64,000 nucleotides of DNA, from the IMG/VR virus record IMGVR_UViG_2939311655_000001, positions 1-64,000 of that record; one strand, given 5' to 3'. The notes under the pieces were generated by a model. It did no database searches. It saw only the letters and a list, made by a program, of their open reading frames with translations, and was not told the origin of the DNA. The translations under genes and the position numbers were made by a program. Shown in pieces: positions 3,051 through 60,216 of this stretch (its first letter is position 1; every line of letters begins with the position of its first letter). Source of the DNA: a virus. Its lineage: Duplodnaviria; Caudoviricetes.

Positions 3051-3953
3051 TCAGGCGCTCTTCGGCTTCTTGGTCGCAGCCTTCTTCGCCGCCGTCTTCT
3101 TGGCTGGGGCCTTCTTCGCGGCCGTCTTCTTGCGGGGCTTCATCTCGTGGACCGTGGCGTCATCGCCCTCACCGCGGGACTCCTTGGCCTTCTGTACGGA
3201 CGCGTTCAGGGCGGCCATCAGGTCAAGGACCTCACCCCGCTGCTGCTCGCCGCCCTCGGCGACCTCCGGGAGTTCCTTGCCCTCCTGCTTGGCCTCAATC
3301 AGCTGCTCCAAGGCGTCCCGGTACTCGTCCCGGTAGCCGCTGATGTCGGCGGTCATCATCGACTCCATCAGCTCCATTGCCCGCTTGATCTCGTCCTCAT
3401 CCACGTCCACGGCATCCGGGGCCAGCTCAGCCGGGTCGCGGATCTCGTCCGGCCATTTCATGGAGTGGAGGACGAGCGCGTCGCCCCGGATGCTGAGCAG
3501 GCCCAACCTCTCCCGGTTGTGCCACGCGAACTTCGCCACGGCGACCTTCGAGGTCCGCTCCAGCGCGCGCCTGAGCAGCACATACGGTTTGGCTGCCACG
3601 GCGCCGTCAGCGGACAGGTAGTAGCTGTCGGAGATGCGCACAGGGTCAATCGACTCCGCGGGGACGAACGCGACGATCTCGATGGCCTTCGCCGTAGGCA
3701 GAGGCATCTCATCCAACTCCTCGTCGGTGACCGGGACGACCTGGTCCTTCGTGAGCTGGTAGCCCTTCCCGATGTCCTCCTGGCCGAGGGCCTTGCCGTC
3801 GATCTCGCACACCTTCCGGGTCCGCACCCGGGCCATGTCCTTCAGGTGGACCTGGTGGAAGTGGATCGAGTGATCCTCGGAGGCGGACGAGACGCGGATA
3901 GGAATGGTCACTAGCCCGAAGCTGATAGCACCGGCCCAAATCGTCGACGGCAT
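3051..3953 (-). CDS. ku: Non-homologous end-joining protein Ku
   Basis: IWAGAISFGLVTIPI, IGKGY, DEYRDAL, DLMAALNAS and Lys/Ala-rich tail. Confidence 0.95.
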   Translation of the reverse strand: MPSTIWAGAISFGLVTIPIRVSSASEDHSIHFHQVHLKDMARVRTRKVCEIDGKALGQEDIGKGYQLTKDQVVPVTDEELDEMPLPTAKAIEIVAFVPAESIDPVRISDSYYLSADGAVAAKPYVLLRRALERTSKVAVAKFAWHNRERLGLLSIRGDALVLHSMKWPDEIRDPAELAPDAVDVDEDEIKRAMELMESMMTADISGYRDEYRDALEQLIEAKQEGKELPEVAEGGEQQRGEVLDLMAALNASVQKAKESRGEGDDATVHEMKPRKKTAAKKAPAKKTAAKKAATKKPKSA

Positions 3954-4151
3954 TCGTACCTCCAAGAGCCCTCTGCGGCTAGCGGGAGGCGGACCGGCCG
4001 CCAATAGGGAGACCTGGTCGAGGCCAGGGGGCGACCGGGCCACCGCCCGTACACCGATCCTCACGCTGCCCGGGCCAGCCCGCATCCGGGGAAGACCGAA
4101 GCGGCGCCCCTCGCACAGGAGGGACGCCGCTGCTGGAGATGCCTGGGCCGG

Positions 4152-50388: not shown

Positions 50389-50652
50389 TCAGGCCGCGGA
50401 GGACCAGCTGGCCCCATGGATGGCACGGAGTGCGCTGGCTGCGTCGTCCGACTCCATGAGCACTTCGCGGCCGGTGGAGCGACGGTCGGGGCCGACGATC
50501 CCGGCGTCGTGCATCTGGTCGAGAAGGCTGAGGGCGGTCTTGAAGGTGACTCGCACACCGTGATCGTTCTTCAGGCGTCGCTGGAGCATGGCGGGTGAGC
50601 CGTGTCGGGTGCTGGTGACGAGTTCGGTGGCGGCGTACAGCAGGTCGATCAT
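50389..50652 (-). CDS. Stand-alone FtsK gamma (winged-helix) domain protein
   Basis: ATELV...GSPAMLQRRL...A..LLDQM..AGIVGP....GREVL. Confidence 0.82.
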   Translation of the reverse strand: MIDLLYAATELVTSTRHGSPAMLQRRLKNDHGVRVTFKTALSLLDQMHDAGIVGPDRRSTGREVLMESDDAASALRAIHGASWSSAA

Positions 50653-51519: not shown

Positions 51520-52296
51520 CTACGCTTCGGCGGGTTGGTTGGCGCGGTGCTTGCCGGTGCCCAGGCAGATCGGGCAGACGGTCGTGGTGTGGACGCTGTT
51601 CCGGGCGGAGTAGAGGGCACCCTTGCCGCCGCAGCAGAAACAGACGCCGCGGTTCTCGGCGGCCTTCTGGCCGAGCGGGGTGTTCTGGGCCTCCCACTCC
51701 TCGTCGGTCATCGACGACGTGGTGTCGGTCTTGGTGACGGGCTCGGCCTGGGTGACGGGCTTCGCTTCGGCTTCGGCGGCTTGCCCGTACCAGGCGCCGC
51801 CGACGGATTTGCCGTGCTTCTTCTTCTCGTGCTCGCGCAGGGCCTTCGTGGCCTCCTTGGCGTCCCTGAACTTGGGCTTCTCCTTCTTGCCGCAGGGGCA
51901 GGTCCAGCCGACGAGCCCGGTCCGTTTGTCGGGGCTGAACCGGGCGGCCACGGCGACCTTGAACCGGCCGGCCTTCGCCTTCGTCGGCTTGGCCGGGCAG
52001 GGCTTCGAGCCGGTGAATGAGCCGTCCTTGCCCTTGGTGAAGAGCTGCCCGTTGCCCTTACAGGTGGTGCAGCCTTCGTGGGTGAGGCGGAGGATCGCGG
52101 CGTCCTTGCGGGACATGACGACGGTCTTACGGGCATCCATCTGCGACGCGGCCTGGAGAGCCAGCCACATACCCATCCGGGCGTGAATCGGGACGGTCTT
52201 GGGGACTTTGAGGCCTTTGCCGACTCGGGCGCGCGGGACGGTCTTCCGGCGGCGGGCGGCCGTGGCTTTGCGGGCGGTCGTCGTCTTCGCGGGCAT
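51520..52296 (-). CDS. Basic zinc-finger protein (DnaJ-like CxxCxGxG motifs)
   Basis: CTTCKGNG, CFCCGGKG, CPICLGTG; GAGGA RBS. Confidence 0.68.
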   Translation of the reverse strand: MPAKTTTARKATAARRRKTVPRARVGKGLKVPKTVPIHARMGMWLALQAASQMDARKTVVMSRKDAAILRLTHEGCTTCKGNGQLFTKGKDGSFTGSKPCPAKPTKAKAGRFKVAVAARFSPDKRTGLVGWTCPCGKKEKPKFRDAKEATKALREHEKKKHGKSVGGAWYGQAAEAEAKPVTQAEPVTKTDTTSSMTDEEWEAQNTPLGQKAAENRGVCFCCGGKGALYSARNSVHTTTVCPICLGTGKHRANQPAEA

Positions 52297-52351
52297 GATC
52301 GGCGGGTCCTCTCGTCTGAACTGCACATATATGGATCAATAGGGCGGCAGG

Positions 52352-52481
52352 CACCCGGCGGGACCCCGGCGCTAGCCCGGCGGATGCCCGGCGACCTGCG
52401 GTGATGCAAGCGGGTCCCGCCGGGTGTCTGCCGGGTCTACGCCGCCCTCTTGCCGAGGTTCTGCCGGGTCTCCGCCGGGTC
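52352..52481. repeat. clt-like array of 8-bp TraB-recognition repeats (consensus GACCCGGC), 11-bp period
   Basis: Forward copies at 52352, 52363, 52374, 52385; reverse copies at 52419, 52430, 52452, 52463, 52474. Confidence 0.75.
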
Positions 52482-54545
52482 GAGAAGGCCAGCGGCGGCC
52501 TTCTCGACGTCGTCTCGGCGCCACCCTCGGAGGTAGGCCCCCTCGGGGCAGTCCGTGCGGTCGGACTTGACCCCGGGGGCGTGCTTGCGGAGCTTCGTCG
52601 ACAGGCTCGTCGCGTCCACGCCCTGAATGCCCGCGTCCGCGATGGCGGGGAGCAGCACCTCGTTGGTGGGCAGGAAGTCGCGCCCCGTCTCGTCGAACGC
52701 GCGCATAAGGGCGGCCACGAGGTAGGCATCGTCCACGCCGCCCTGCTGGGCGAAGGCGTCGAGCCGGTCGGCTAGGTTCACCCGCTGGCCACTGGCAGCG
52801 AGAGCGACTCCGGCCTTGAGGAGGGTCTCGGAGTCCATGGTGGTGATGCCGGCGGCGACGCGCGCGGGGACTGCCCCGGCGATCTGGTCGCGGGTGTACT
52901 TGGCGAACTGGTAGCGGATCGCCCGGTTGAACGGCCCGCCCATGATCATGGCTTGGCCTGCATCGTTCGCAACGGGGCCGACTGCGGGTTTCATGCGATC
53001 GGGGCGCCATCCTTCCTTTCCGGCCCCAGGACCAAAGGCGATCTTGACGTCTTCGAAGCGGCAGGCCATGAGGAGTCGGTAGGCAATGATCATCGCGACG
53101 GCGTCGCCGAGGGCATCAGCGGTCGCCTCCTGTCCGGCCATGATCAAGTAGATGCCGTACTGGCGACCGGTCCGCAAGATCTTGACCGCCAGCTCCTTAC
53201 CCTTGGGGCTGAGCTGAATGAACTCGTCGATGTTGATGTACAGGTTGGGGTGCTTCGCAGTGGCGTGCCACCGGTCGCCCATCTTCAGGCTGTCCATGAG
53301 GTTGCGGCGGGCGGACACGTAGGAGAGGGCCTCTTCAAGGGCCGCCTCGCACTCCTCGGGCGTTCGAGCCCGGCGGGACATGAGATCCCCAAACTCGGAC
53401 AGCCCGCCCTTGATGGGGTCAAGGTCCCAGACCGTGGCGTCCCGGCAGGCGGTCAACGCCTCGTTGATCGCCCGCAGCGCACCCAGCGTCTTCCCGGCAC
53501 CCATCGCCCCGATGATCAGGGCACAGAACCCGTCCAGGGTGATCTCGAACGGCGACCCGTCCATGGTCCGCCCCATAGCGACCACGTCGTGCACCGACAG
53601 GGACCGCGGCGCGTGAACCGCCGGGGTCGGCATGTCGGCGAACGGGTTGGACTGAACCAGGCGGGCGGTGATTCGGGACTTATCCGTCGTGTCGGGCTCC
53701 ATCATGAACCCGCCGTCAGGCAGCCCGAGGTCGGACTCCAAGTCGTCCGCCACAGCCATGACCTTGCCGGGAGTGGATCCCTTCAGGGTGACGTCGAGCT
53801 CCCACCCCCACCCCTTCGCGCCAACGATGGTGATCGCCCGGGTACCGATCCCCTGAGCGGCCAGGGCGCGGGACACGCATTCGATGACCTGCTCGCCGCC
53901 GACGCAGTACGACAGGGGGAACGGGTCGTCGGAGTCGAGGGCGTCCTGCTCGGCCACGACCTGGTCGGCCTCGATGCCGGGCGCGTTGAGCCGGTACCGC
54001 CCGTACAGGGCGGTGGCGGTGGCGGCAAGCAGCCCGGTCGTGGTGGGGGGTACAGCCCAGGAGTAGTCGAGGGCGGTCATTTCGGCACCGGCGACGAGCG
54101 CCCACCAGCCGGCCAGGTTGAGGGCGGCGGTGGTGATGGCGGAGTAGCCGAGGAACTTCCACCGGGAGTGGCGTTCCCGCTTGACGTAGTTCAGGTCCGC
54201 CTTCGAAGTGACACCGCCGATGTACTCCATGGTGTCGCGGCCGCGCACGTACCGGTATCCGAGGTAGCTCCCGGCTTTGAGCCCTGCCCAGAACCAGCCG
54301 CCGGCGACCACGGATCCGTAGGCGGTGAGTCCGACGGCCCGGCCGGTGACGGAGGCGACGACCATGGCCGCGGAACGGGTGTGTCGGATCACGGGGCGGC
54401 GGTCCGGGAACGGGAGGAGAACACCGGGGGCAATGTCGTCGTCGCCGTCCACGGCGGTCGGCTCGGCCGGGTGGATTACCTGCCCGGGGATGACCTTCTC
54501 GAAGCCGTGCGGGTTCGCCGCCTCGGTGGCGTAGTCGGTACTCAC
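52437..54545 (-). CDS. traB: FtsK/SpoIIIE-family conjugative DNA translocase (TraB-like)
   Basis: N-terminal TMs, Walker A GAMGAGKT, DPIKG, Walker B INIDE, RTGRQYGI...GQ, C-terminal winged helix ending RGW. Confidence 0.85.
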   Translation of the reverse strand: MSTDYATEAANPHGFEKVIPGQVIHPAEPTAVDGDDDIAPGVLLPFPDRRPVIRHTRSAAMVVASVTGRAVGLTAYGSVVAGGWFWAGLKAGSYLGYRYVRGRDTMEYIGGVTSKADLNYVKRERHSRWKFLGYSAITTAALNLAGWWALVAGAEMTALDYSWAVPPTTTGLLAATATALYGRYRLNAPGIEADQVVAEQDALDSDDPFPLSYCVGGEQVIECVSRALAAQGIGTRAITIVGAKGWGWELDVTLKGSTPGKVMAVADDLESDLGLPDGGFMMEPDTTDKSRITARLVQSNPFADMPTPAVHAPRSLSVHDVVAMGRTMDGSPFEITLDGFCALIIGAMGAGKTLGALRAINEALTACRDATVWDLDPIKGGLSEFGDLMSRRARTPEECEAALEEALSYVSARRNLMDSLKMGDRWHATAKHPNLYINIDEFIQLSPKGKELAVKILRTGRQYGIYLIMAGQEATADALGDAVAMIIAYRLLMACRFEDVKIAFGPGAGKEGWRPDRMKPAVGPVANDAGQAMIMGGPFNRAIRYQFAKYTRDQIAGAVPARVAAGITTMDSETLLKAGVALAASGQRVNLADRLDAFAQQGGVDDAYLVAALMRAFDETGRDFLPTNEVLLPAIADAGIQGVDATSLSTKLRKHAPGVKSDRTDCPEGAYLRGWRRDDVEKAAAGLLDPAETRQNLGKRAA

Positions 54546-54569: not shown

Positions 54570-55919
54570 CTAGTCGGCGGACAGCTCGGTCTTGACGGCG
54601 TCGCGAAGGCGGACGGCGTATTCGTTGGACCCGCCGCCGATGACTTCTCGGACCTTGCGGGCGGACAGGCGGTCGATGTCGCCGAGGGCTTCGGCGAGTT
54701 TGCGGACCGCTGCGAGGTGGGTTGCTTCGAGGGGGCGCAGCGGTGTCTTTCCGGAGGTGCGGCCAGATGCCTGCTTCCCTTTACGCCCAAGGGGTCCAGG
54801 CCCCTTGGAGGCGTCCGGGCGGCGAGCCTTCGACCCTCCCCCCGCACCACCCTTCGGGCCGCCCTCTGGAGGCGCCTGGGACGGCCCGGCGTCGCCGCCG
54901 TCGGGGCGGAAGATTTCAGCGAGGAGCCGATCCACCGCTTCGCTCTCCGGGCTGCGATCGACGTCCGACAGGACCGCGTTGATTGCTGCGCGCGCATCCT
55001 CCCGGCCGGCCAGCGTGTCGGCCGTGGTGGCGAGCGGAAGGAGGTGGAGGTTGTCCCACGCCTGCTGCCACGCAGCCTCACGGGTGATGGCCCCGGTGGG
55101 GTGCGCAACGATGATCCGCTCGTACTCGGCGAACTCCAGCGGGAGAAGCTTCCGGCGGCGCTTGTCCTCCGCGTCATGAACCTTCTTCTGTGCCCGCCCC
55201 GCCTTGGCGGCCTTCTTCGCTGCCGCCTTCTCGGCGGCCCGCTGCTCCACACTTCGGGTGTCTGCTGCGGCGCGGCCCTCCAGGAAGTCCCGCACCTCGG
55301 CAAGCACCGGACCGATCACCGATGTTGCGGCGAGCGCCACGCCAGCGACGATCCCGTACTCGTCGACGCCGTGCGCCAGGTTGATGTACCCGGCGATCGA
55401 GGCGAGAGCGGCGGTGAGAATCCAGAACGGCCACCGCGGCAAACCCTTGCGGTGCGCCCACCTGGTGCCAAGCACGCCGACCCAGGCCAACAGCTCCAGG
55501 AAGAACGGGATCGGGCCGAGAAGCCATGCCCTGCCCGGGTCCTCCTCGCCCTTCTTGTGCAGGCCGAGGAAGTACGACAGCTGGGCGGGGAGTGCGGCCA
55601 GAAGTCCGAGGACGACAGCCACGTTGACGAGCCGCTTGAATCCGGCGCCATTGTCCGCGCTGGCTTCGCGGCGCCGCTGCTTCAGTTCGGCCTGCTCGTC
55701 CTTCGCGGACTCCTTGACCGCGTCGAGCTTCTTCTTGAGACCGGCCTGCTTGACCTGTTCGGCCAGGAGGTCGGTGGCGGTCTTAGCTGCGCCGGCTTCT
55801 GCTGCCTGGGCGCTGACTGAGCGGGCGGCGTCGGCTTCGGCGGCGATCCGTGCCGCTTCGGCACGGGTCTTGGCGGCCGCGGCCTCACGCTCCTCCCAGG
55901 AACGGTAGTCGGCACTCAT
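54570..55919 (-). CDS. Spd-like spread protein (coiled coil, 4 TM, C-terminal HTH; DUF2637-like)
   Basis: Four TMs with LPAQ/LE/INLAH, C-terminal SARKVREVIGGG; immediately upstream of traB. Confidence 0.7.
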   Translation of the reverse strand: MSADYRSWEEREAAAAKTRAEAARIAAEADAARSVSAQAAEAGAAKTATDLLAEQVKQAGLKKKLDAVKESAKDEQAELKQRRREASADNGAGFKRLVNVAVVLGLLAALPAQLSYFLGLHKKGEEDPGRAWLLGPIPFFLELLAWVGVLGTRWAHRKGLPRWPFWILTAALASIAGYINLAHGVDEYGIVAGVALAATSVIGPVLAEVRDFLEGRAAADTRSVEQRAAEKAAAKKAAKAGRAQKKVHDAEDKRRRKLLPLEFAEYERIIVAHPTGAITREAAWQQAWDNLHLLPLATTADTLAGREDARAAINAVLSDVDRSPESEAVDRLLAEIFRPDGGDAGPSQAPPEGGPKGGAGGGSKARRPDASKGPGPLGRKGKQASGRTSGKTPLRPLEATHLAAVRKLAEALGDIDRLSARKVREVIGGGSNEYAVRLRDAVKTELSAD

Positions 55920-57162: not shown

Positions 57163-57543
57163 CTATCGGTTGACGACCGGCAGGTGGAGGTCGCGGTGCT
57201 GAACGGTGACGGTGTGTCCGTCGGTGGTGAGCTGGTCGGCGAGGGCCTGAGCGAACGTTGGTGCCCGGTGTCTGCCGCCAGCGCATCCGTCGGCGATGGC
57301 GATGGGCCCGGCACTGGGGCCAGCGGCGAACGCGTTCACAGCGGCAGCGGTTGCCGCGACCAGGTCGGTGATGCCCGGCGTCGCGAGCACCGCGGCTCGG
57401 ACAGGTTCGTCGTTCGCGGTCATGTGCCTGAGTTCCGGGCTGACGTGCGGGTCCCGGAAGTGGTGGCGAAGATCGATGACCAGGTGAGCGGCAGGCGGGG
57501 TGTTGTGGAGATAGCCGAACGAGGTGATCTCGACCTGGGCCAT
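57163..57543 (-). CDS. RapZ C-terminal-domain-only protein
   Basis: ITSFGYLH, DLR..FRDPH, IADGCAGGRHRA, VQHRD. Confidence 0.8.
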   Translation of the reverse strand: MAQVEITSFGYLHNTPPAAHLVIDLRHHFRDPHVSPELRHMTANDEPVRAAVLATPGITDLVAATAAAVNAFAAGPSAGPIAIADGCAGGRHRAPTFAQALADQLTTDGHTVTVQHRDLHLPVVNR

Positions 57544-57574
57544 CGCGGTGTGTCCTTCCGGGGTATCGAGTGGG

Positions 57575-57787
57575 TCAGGCGTGGCTGGGGGTCCAGGTGC
57601 CGTTGTCGAGGTCGTTGAGCTCGTCGATTGCCTCGTCTGCGGCCTGTCGCATGTTCTCGGCGAGCCGGTGCTGGCCGGCGGCCTGGAGGTCGCGCTGGGC
57701 GGTGCGGGAGTTCGTGATGTCGGCCTTGATCTCGGCGCGGGTCTGCTCGGCCGACTGGCTCTTGAAGAAGTGACGGGCGCTTGCCAT
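57575..57787 (-). CDS. Small helical protein
   Basis: MASARHFF; GAGGAG RBS. Confidence 0.62.
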   Translation of the reverse strand: MASARHFFKSQSAEQTRAEIKADITNSRTAQRDLQAAGQHRLAENMRQAADEAIDELNDLDNGTWTPSHA

Positions 57788-57873
57788 GGGACGCTCCTCG
57801 GTTCGGGCTCCTGTTGGTCCGGGCCTCGCCACCGCCACCAGCAGGTTGCTGGCAACGATGGGGCGGGCCGGGG

Positions 57874-59463: not shown

Positions 59464-60216
59464 TCAGGAGGGGAACGTGTACACCAGGCGGTAGCTATCC
59501 GCGTCAAGCATCATCTCGTTGACCTCAACAGGTCGGTCCTCGGCGTCATAGGCGGTGCGAACAATCAGGATCACTGGAGTGCTCATCGTGATCCCGAGCG
59601 TCTTCGACTCACTCGGAAGCGGGAGTCGAACCTTGATCTCCTCGCGGTAGCGCGCCGGCCCGTGCCCGATCTCATCGAGTCGCGCATAGACGCCGCCCGG
59701 GCCAGTATTCGGCTCGGTGATCGCCGTGCCATCAGCCAGATCTGCGGGGTACCAGGCGGTCGACTGCTGCACCGGCCGCCTCTCGGCCTGGTAAACCCTG
59801 CTTCGACGCCAGACCTTCTGCCCCTTAACGCCCAGCGTGCCAGCGATGCCGTCCGGCGCGTCGACCTTGTCGATCTCAACATTCTCCTGGCGGTCCCTGC
59901 CATGGAGGTCGGAGTCCCAGACGGCTCGCCCTGCACCCCAATGCTTGCGAGACAACCGCTCTACAGCATCGCGGCCGATGCGGGAGAATGTGCGAAGGAA
60001 GACACCAGATCCGCCGCGGGACTCGATGAGGTCTTCGCCGCGCAGTATCTGCAACGCGTCCCGCACGGTGTTCCTTGCGGTGTCGAACTCTTCCGTCAGC
60101 GCGCGCTCGCTGGGCAGCTTGCCAGTGGCCGCGTAATCGCCAGCCTCGATCCGCGCGCGCAACTCATCCGCGATCTCGACGTAGCGCGGCTTCTTGCTCT
60201 GCGCTGGATCCTTCAA
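59464..60216 (-). CDS. GntR/HutC-family repressor (KorSA-like)
   Basis: YVEIADELR...KLPSE...TVRDAL..L...GSGVF wHTH plus UTRA domain (GPGGVYARL, RPVEV). Confidence 0.9.
   Translation of the reverse strand: MKDPAQSKKPRYVEIADELRARIEAGDYAATGKLPSERALTEEFDTARNTVRDALQILRGEDLIESRGGSGVFLRTFSRIGRDAVERLSRKHWGAGRAVWDSDLHGRDRQENVEIDKVDAPDGIAGTLGVKGQKVWRRSRVYQAERRPVQQSTAWYPADLADGTAITEPNTGPGGVYARLDEIGHGPARYREEIKVRLPLPSESKTLGITMSTPVILIVRTAYDAEDRPVEVNEMMLDADSYRLVYTFPS

Follow-up and report, generated by a model that had tools for sequence, protein, structure and literature searches.

Two facing rows of phased repeats, a candidate clt-type loading site, at the 3′ end of a TraB-like translocase gene in a tailed prophage

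The window analyzed here, 64,000 nucleotides of viral DNA (Duplodnaviria; Caudoviricetes; positions 1 to 64,000 of IMG/VR record IMGVR_UViG_2939311655_000001), carries a gene for a TraB/FtsK-like DNA translocase, or DNA pump (protein P0001), whose 3′ end overlaps two rows of 8-bp repeats facing each other on opposite strands. This feature is real, highly non-random and conserved among related loci. We consider it probable that the 140-bp stretch is a cis-acting site of the clt (cis-acting transfer locus) type, serving as a candidate docking or loading site for the TraB-like pump encoded by the gene that it overlaps. Gene exchange in Streptomyces proceeds mainly by TraB-mediated transfer of double-stranded DNA, and to our knowledge few clt sites have been defined by experiment.

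The repeat array and its conservation

Reading the sequence directly placed all nine 8-mers of the first-pass annotation at exactly the coordinates it had given, with both sets in an 11-bp register. Its claim that the second set reaches into the traB coding end also held: the stop codon occupies 52437–52439, and four slots (52441–52481) lie within the last 45 bp of the pump open reading frame (ORF). Two more (52419–52437) lie just beyond the stop codon, and all the non-coding slots fall within 100 bp downstream of the pump ORF. The elements of the site are as follows (repeat classes are defined below).

52437–54545, minus strand: gene for the TraB/FtsK-like DNA translocase P0001, 702 aa
52440–52760, minus strand: coding part of the putative specificity cassette, the last ~107 codons, with a predicted winged-helix domain and short tail
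52408–52481, minus strand: first arm, seven slots at 11-bp steps, read on the pump-gene strand
52341–52392, plus strand: second arm, five slots spaced by 11 bp, with the word of the first arm on the other strand
52393–52406, minus strand: central element CATC-N4-GCAGGTC between the arms, kept in classes A to C in the alignment
52326–52340, minus strand: ATTGATCCATATATG, a conserved box that borders the second arm on its outer side and hardly varies in classes A to C

Four plus-strand 8-mers: CACCCGGC, ACCCCGGC, AGCCCGGC and TGCCCGGC, starting at 52352, 52363, 52374 and 52385
Five inverse 8-mers: GCCGGGTG, GCCGGGTC, GCCGAGGT, GCCGGGTC and GCCGGGTC, starting at 52419, 52430, 52452, 52463 and 52474
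First-arm slots on the gene strand: GACCCGGC (52474–52481), GACCCGGC (52463–52470), ACCTCGGC (52452–52459, degenerate), AGGGCGGC (52441–52448, degenerate), GACCCGGC (52430–52437), CACCCGGC (52419–52426), partial copy (52408–52415)
Second-arm slots: AGGGCGGC (52341–52348, degenerate), CACCCGGC (52352–52359), ACCCCGGC (52363–52370), AGCCCGGC (52374–52381), TGCCCGGC (52385–52392)

Put as words, NNCCCGGC starts at 52352, 52363, 52374 and 52385 on the plus strand, and the inverse GCCGGGNN at 52419, 52430, 52463 and 52474; the copy at 52452 is degenerate. With three extra degenerate slots that keep the phase (52441–52448, 52408–52415 and 52341–52348), the arms hold seven and five in-phase slots, nine of which are good copies. 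A repeat search and Tandem Repeats Finder both gave a period of 11 for the two sets. The 88,576-bp record contains 254 occurrences of the core hexamer CCCGGC/GCCGGG, while at least three of four copies at 11-bp steps are found at a single place in it, 52354/52365. The record contained no hexamer triples at any other period from 7 to 16, and phased triples appeared in none of 200 second-order Markov simulations. The 11-bp register is kept within each set; the distance between the sets shows no conserved multiple of 11 across relatives. FtsK-orienting polar sequences (KOPS) are dispersed and strand-skewed over the whole chromosome, not clustered; in the window, the word showed no KOPS-like polarity or extra clustering (29 matches vs. 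19.3 expected, five of them within the array). An Rfam search of the array returned one sub-threshold chance match (16.8 bits vs. a gathering score of 79), and blastn of the array against plasmids gave short chance-level matches only, with no Streptomyces record among them.

The central element is present whatever the repeat class and might be bound by a factor that all classes share; an akin element, CCGCAGGTCAG, occurs once per arm in the class D loci (L011/L022–L028) and in the plasmids pFP1 and NZ_CP108056.1. The conserved box precedes the next gene's ribosome-binding site (52307–52313) and forms the right boundary of the cassette that appears to have been swapped in one relative (see below); a simple scan found no sigma-70 promoter at the box. 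The coding end also contains an inverted repeat with perfectly matching 12-bp halves set 6 bp apart (52479–52490 / 52497–52508), overlapping the first repeat slot. It is probably incidental, as judged from loci L004–L008, which do not keep the inverted symmetry.

We compared the window with 24 related loci, 11 from viral contigs (53–86% identity) and 13 from a one-genome-per-species scan, all Streptomyces. The pump gene is broken in one of them (L024), leaving 24 intact loci, i.e. the window and 23 relatives; two of these, L005 and L006, are identical in the array region. As an unbiased test of periodicity, we scored 5-mer self-matches at lags of 6–19 in the 180 bp around the stop codon. Periodicity next to homologous traB genes, the loss of which would have spoken against the site, was kept in all 24 intact loci, with a best lag of 10–12 bp throughout (11 in 22 loci, 12 and 10 in the other two). 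The score was unmatched by ~200 random 180-bp windows of the same locus in 21 of the 24, and matched by at most three windows in the others. Both arms are present in 23 of the 24, with gaps of 11, 22 or 33 bp, L009 being without a clear second arm. All copies in both arms of a locus share one word, and they change together between classes:

Class A, CCCGGC: window, L002, L004–L008, L012, L016, with L009 as a variant
Class B, CCCGTCT and some CCCGGCT: L003, L010, L017, L019–L021
Class C, CCGTCC: L018
Class D, CTGCTC: L011, L022, L023, L025–L028

The class D site is a near-palindrome directly downstream of the stop codon, and its gaps are mirror-symmetric (11, 10, 21, 12, 12 then 11, 12, 21, 10, 11). 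The decayed gene of L024 (NZ_CP106795.1, 1285549–1292568), in which only residues 352–695 were matched and the frame runs into unrelated sequence, has no repeat array.

The pump and its C-terminal tail as the predicted reader of the repeats

P0001 matches the FtsK/SpoIIIE-like family phrog_12531 (E 3.5e-85) and has a Walker A motif, GAMGAGKT, at residue 346. Its full-length AlphaFold model is poor (mean predicted local distance difference test score, pLDDT, of 57) and was used only for the motor match, in which Foldseek placed the FtsK motor 6t8b first (E 7.6e-11), followed by 2ius (2.7e-09), TcpA and EccC. The protein carries an FtsK-type RecA-like motor, homologous to the alpha and beta domains of FtsK. 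A PDB sequence search with P0001 gave no matches. By tblastn, P0001 is ~31–37% identical over 53–60% of its length to Streptomyces plasmid translocases such as that of pFP1, and 32–40% identical to FtsK-like proteins of lytic cluster-BE-type Streptomyces phages. It is TraB-like in architecture and outside the plasmid_TraB equivalog.

The C-terminal part was modeled with more confidence (residues 575–702, pLDDT 85.7), with the order H-H-b-H-H-b-b-H-H, and its top structural neighbours are all winged-helix proteins or domains (MepR, TubR, Cdt1, Rex, ORC/MCM). The predicted recognition helix corresponds to residues 645–655 and the wing to 662–676. FtsK gamma was not listed among the structural neighbours of the tail by Foldseek or VIA, which we do not take as exclusion, and P0001 gave no match to the Pfam FtsK gamma family (PF09397). 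The model suggests that the tail works like gamma by the logic of its fold; we do not claim membership of the gamma family.

The repeat-word class tracks only the last ~110 residues of the pump in a table of tblastn identities. To locate the difference, we counted separating columns, i.e. those where classes A and B share no residue. These make up 14 of 112 columns in the tail (residues 620, 636, 646, 650, 665–672, 679 and 691), compared to 1 of 590 outside the tail, none of 258 in the product of the next gene and none of 197 in that of a further gene. T646 and T650 fall within the predicted recognition helix and 665–672 within the predicted wing, and residues 646, 650 and 665–672 are those that we predict to set specificity. 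In L021, the tail pairs a recognition helix like that of class A (RLRKHAP) with a wing like that of class B, and both CCCGTCT and CCCGGCT occur in the arrays; this locus may be a natural intermediate in specificity.

The clearest case is provided by L003, which has class B repeats and a pump 86% identical to that of the window in residues 1–590 and 44% identical in the tail. L002, by comparison, has class A repeats, and the corresponding values are 85% and 91%. Sliding identity of L003 to the window and L002 is 85–95% outside, and 45–70% inside, the interval from ~52340 to ~52760. As read from the alignment, the block replaced in L003 consists of the tail and both arms, ending at the conserved box. 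The pumps of L002 and L003 are ~86% identical outside the tail, a near-isogenic pair differing only in tail and repeats. More broadly, the locus and its 23 intact relatives amount to a natural experiment, with four words (five with the plasmids described below) in one fixed architecture. The set of words, the near-isogenic pair and the short list of predicted specificity residues together open both the recognition code and the second arm's role to direct testing.

The loading-site proposal, known systems and alternative explanations

In the mechanism that we propose, the winged-helix tails of a membrane-bound FtsK-like hexamer would read the 8-bp word (G/C)ACCCGGC. Copies spaced once per helical turn would lie on the same face of the DNA, so that several tails could bind side by side. 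The row on the opposite strand would then form a mirror-image docking surface, on which another pump could be seated facing the other way. After loading, the motor would drive the double-stranded phage genome, either excised or integrated, into a neighbouring compartment or recipient hypha, as TraB does with plasmids. Binding, loading, pumping direction and transfer are all steps that we infer from sequence. The first-pass annotation had suggested that the two arrays could load TraB in both directions and might mobilize flanking chromosome. The possible loading from both sides is supported by the retention of the head-to-head design through four repeat classes and two plasmids; mobilization of the flanking chromosome is likewise a conjecture.

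The site belongs to a known kind of system. Streptomyces plasmid clt regions hold direct 8-bp repeats recognized by their own TraB (PMC4447253), through helix alpha-3 in a C-terminal winged helix (PMC3583192, PMC10191066). For pSVH1, the 8-bp repeat invoked in the first-pass annotation was confirmed, with the consensus GACCCGGA, and 25 clusters of four copies are described on the S. coelicolor chromosome (PMC5133688). The likeness lies in 8-bp repeats that occur in clusters and are recognized by a C-terminal winged helix belonging to an FtsK-like, membrane-associated hexameric pump, and the word found here in three slots (GACCCGGC) is identical to the pSVH1 consensus at 7 of 8 positions. The present system differs from pSVH1 in its distantly related protein (30 bits vs. 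a plasmid_TraB cut-off of 800) and its tailed-prophage host; here, an inverted second arm is a conserved part of the site. The clt of pWTY27 comprises 16 bp within traA and 159 bp beyond it, with direct and inverted repeats and two regions footprinted by TraA (PMC3583192). As here, the site starts within the 3′ end of the tra gene and runs on downstream (for ~140 bp in our case). Unlike here, pWTY27 is a plasmid, its words are TGACACC and CCCGCCC, and the available part of that account reports neither one-turn phasing nor mirror arms. The same logic is seen in FtsK gamma with KOPS and SpoIIIE with its recognition sequences (SRS), where a C-terminal winged helix reads a polar 8-bp word that sets the loading site and direction (PMC4447253 in part).

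The best plasmid protein matches were in pFP1 (NC_006912.1) and NZ_CP108056.1 (~36% identity over 53–57% of P0001), which also have head-to-head arms directly after the translocase stop codon and the CCGCAGGTCAG element. They differ in the word (CTCTAC/GTAGAG), in a period of ~12 bp and in a site that lies wholly downstream of the gene. In this comparison, which covers 2 of 54 matching plasmid records, the shared head-to-head design indicates that the mirror-image layout is an ancestral trait of this TraB lineage, not something peculiar to the phage. The FtsK-like gene of the lytic BE-cluster phage Samisti12, 1 of 89 matching phage records, has no array at its 3′ end. A virion-forming element with a tra gene has a published precedent in the ~90-kb Streptomyces plasmid-phage pZL12/phage ZL12 (GQ919031.1), in which a tra gene and two neighbours are needed for conjugal transfer (PMC3583192, PMC4487206). 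By annotation, it shares with the present prophage a glycerophosphodiesterase tail-fibre-type gene, a ~4.56-kb tail gene and a GntR gene of its own, and differs in being a plasmid with ParAB whereas ours is an integrated provirus. Its FtsK-like gene, pZL12.71c, is of a different lineage, with no match to P0001 and no phased repeats at the 3′ end.

What goes beyond the literature searched is that this TraB lineage is found in a prophage, that an architecture of two arms phased by one turn is conserved across four to five word classes and, to judge by the sequence comparisons, that tail and array form a compact cassette exchanged as a unit. We found no published description of mirror-image arms of TraB recognition sequences, of exchange of a tail-plus-clt cassette or of this type of TraB in prophages, in a search that left most subscription journals outside. 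The locus adds to the indications that a plasmid-type transfer site that looks functional is carried by tailed Streptomyces prophages, which may thereby spread between hyphae without virions.

Several observations weigh against a loading site. P0001 scores below the Pfam FtsK_SpoIIIE cut-off (22.6 bits vs. 24) and far below that of the NCBIfam equivalog plasmid_TraB (NF041214; 30.2 bits vs. 800, over residues 262–479 only). Its N-terminal hydrophobic stretches (62–80 and 136–154) are modest, with Kyte-Doolittle values of 1.28 and 1.33 for a usual cut-off of 1.6; the model has long helices, at low confidence, at residues 60–153. Structural searches with the tail returned weak matches (a best Foldseek E of 0.12 and VIA Z values no higher than 5.8), and the tail showed no profile similarity to FtsK gamma, hhalign against the prophage's own gamma protein giving a probability of 0.18%. 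The word patterns used to assign arms and slots were chosen after the sequences had been seen, the self-match test being the unbiased check. For the most part, the repeat classes agree with motor phylogeny (4 changes for a minimum of 3 on a tree built from the N-terminal and motor parts), and for this reason the independent evidence for co-exchange comes from one clean recombinant, L003. The tail adjoins the array, so linkage alone could carry both together. Lastly, the arms form a stable hairpin (minimum free energy −97.1 kcal/mol, z −2.56), which leaves them open to a structural role in RNA or DNA. The initial identification of the array as the cis-acting transfer locus is supported in part, by the conserved periodicity and the change of word with the C-terminal DNA-binding domain, and needs qualifying in that the pump is TraB-like only. 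By resemblance, the site would fall among clt regions, having clustered 7–9-bp repeats, a position adjoining or overlapping the end of a translocase gene, and a word matched to a C-terminal winged helix.

The tail might bind the repeats in a regulatory role, as an operator or roadblock controlling either read-through from the pump gene to the downstream genes or a promoter of their own, and not as a transfer origin. The arms lie exactly between two genes of one operon, the second abuts the conserved box and the ribosome-binding site of the next gene, and the co-variation of word and tail fits any function that needs tail binding. However, our scan revealed no sigma-70-like promoter, a membrane-anchored, ATP-driven pump would be an odd repressor, and four to seven phased sites per arm are more than an operator needs. 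The known regulators of such modules are GntR proteins, one of which is present here, and characterized relatives use such repeats as clt (PMC4447253, PMC3583192). We consider a regulatory role unlikely. In another reading, a nucleic-acid structure would be primary, either a long RNA hairpin (terminator or stabilizer) or a DNA cruciform, and the 8-mers incidental. An equally good fold was reached by 1 of 200 shuffles, the arms are paired by RNAalifold in 10 of 10 aligned loci with 7 of 36 pairs changed on both sides, and the class D loci and plasmids have a near-perfect palindrome directly after the stop codon. Yet only the repeat cores pair, the 3-nt spacers being unpaired at every turn, the covariation term of +0.59 amounts to none, and all the two-sided changes trace to the single change of word from class A to class B. 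A T-run is lacking, and the scan of 52150–52650 found no terminator. A structure of this kind would leave unexplained the strict 11-bp period, the extra unpaired slots (seven vs. five), the degenerate slots that keep the phase, and the change of recognition-helix and wing columns with the word. We view it as quite improbable.

Two blocks of ~11–12-bp phased repeats also resemble plasmid centromeres such as R1 parC or tubC, raising the idea of a partition centromere, or of replication iterons, bound by another protein of the prophage. One weak structural neighbour of the tail is TubR, and relatives of this phage exist as 88–92-kb plasmids. This explanation meets a number of difficulties: no partition ATPase or GTPase and no Rep family was found among the ORFs picked by third-codon-position G+C (GC3) bias in ~44–63 kb, the neighbouring proteins do not co-vary with the word, and the stand-alone FtsK-gamma protein encoded nearby had no match in 23 of the 24 related loci within the flanks examined. 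Moreover, the array always follows the pump gene, even in plasmids with their own ParAB elsewhere. We think it highly improbable that the array has such a function.

Returning to the clt-type loading site, a possible but speculative generalization is that mirror-image arms are a general design rule of pFP1-type TraB sites, both in plasmids and in prophages. Each arm would seat one hexamer, in opposite orientations, and an uncut double-stranded molecule, circular or integrated, could pass as a loop from both sides into the adjacent hypha; the swappable cassette of ~420 bp would set private transfer specificities, and orphan arrays, such as that described at the end of the next section, would hitch a ride. 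If true, two-arm loading would answer how TraB moves unprocessed circular DNA, and private specificities would keep co-resident conjugative prophages and plasmids from moving each other.

Prophage setting, neighbouring genes and other copies of the word

The window is the first 64 kb of the record, which is classed as a provirus and carries genes for a large terminase, a portal, a 1,520-aa tape measure, a Ku-like protein, a P22-type antirepressor, recombination functions, a cytosine methylase and, at the far end, a tyrosine integrase. The element had been described as integrated, which stands, but it is a complete siphophage-type tailed prophage (terminase, portal, tape measure, integrase). 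An actinomycete integrative and conjugative element (AICE) was ruled out as the context by the provirus classification together with the terminase, portal, tape measure, Ku-like protein, antirepressor and integrase. The neighbouring genes bearing on the transfer module, and the Ku-like gene, are as follows.

3051–4151, minus strand: Ku-like DNA-end-binding protein, close to the record's left end (phrog_4873, E 2.4e-63)
50389–50652, minus strand: stand-alone FtsK-gamma domain protein, 87 aa, at the operon end (Pfam FtsK_gamma, 47.5 bits for a cut-off of 30.6)
51520–52296, minus strand: next gene in the operon, 258 aa, lysine/arginine-rich with Cys-X2-Cys motifs (weak DnaJ_CXXCXGXG match)
54570–55919, minus strand: upstream gene, 449 aa, with an Ala/Glu/Lys-rich N-terminal part (coiled-coil-like by eye), 3–4 hydrophobic helices and a C-terminal domain
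59467–60216, minus strand: GntR/UTRA regulator (Pfam GntR 63.8 bits, UTRA 83.4 bits)

A gap of 140 bp separates the pump stop codon from the next minus-strand gene, whose ATG is at 52296. The 258-aa product of this gene is 77–92% identical across classes A, B and D and, with this high identity and no class-separating columns, was ruled out as reader of the repeats. The stand-alone gamma protein was ruled out as a conserved reader, being matched in 1 of the 24 related loci within the flanks examined. It would rather be an accessory of this phage, and possibly a second reader of 8-bp words. Upstream, the 449-aa protein has the layout of the pSVH1 spread protein SpdB2 (PMC4447253), a likeness of architecture only; it gave no Pfam or PHROG match. 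The GntR/UTRA protein is of the type of the TraR/KorA repressors of Streptomyces transfer modules, which stand in the traR-traB kil-kor relation (PMC4447253). An excisionase-like helix-turn-helix protein is also encoded near the pump gene. The module further includes a 230-aa protein with a RapZ C-terminal domain (57163–57855, minus strand; Pfam 90.7 bits), whose gene has short DNA matches to genes annotated as ‘nucleotide-binding’ or ‘RNA binding’ in the Streptomyces phages Geonosis and Abt2graduatex2.

A portal gene lies ~6–20 kb from the pump in the host genomes G001, G002, G004 and G005, and probably in G003, where the identity of the contig is unsure. In G006 and G007, no portal (Pfam PF04860) was found near the pump. 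Two Streptomyces plasmids of 88–92 kb, NZ_CP108705.1 (L013) and NZ_CP109578.1, have a portal 86% identical to that of the prophage. The first of these, an 88-kb circular plasmid with ParAB and a PhlD-type polyketide synthase like pZL12, showed no match to P0001. The portal common to such plasmids and the prophage suggests that the same virion module travels with different transfer modules, as a plasmid or integrated.

Other copies of the word were sought in two genomes. In G001, a class A genome of 8.6 Mb, the triple-phased word occurs at the site only, with no chromosomal clc-like clusters of the class A word beyond it; the backwards control gave 5 chance matches. The class B genome G004 has a second, very regular head-to-head class B array on another contig than its class B pump (L043, 9102–9400, i.e. 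G004:C19, ~181100–181400), with six plus six copies at 11 bp. None of the module proteins, including the pump, was matched in the 10.6-kb locus around this orphan array (9 kb upstream and 1.4 kb to the contig end). It is directly followed by a second head-to-head array, with the word CTGCTA / TAGCAC and its own CGCAGGTC element. By its sequence, the orphan array could be a mobilizable site.

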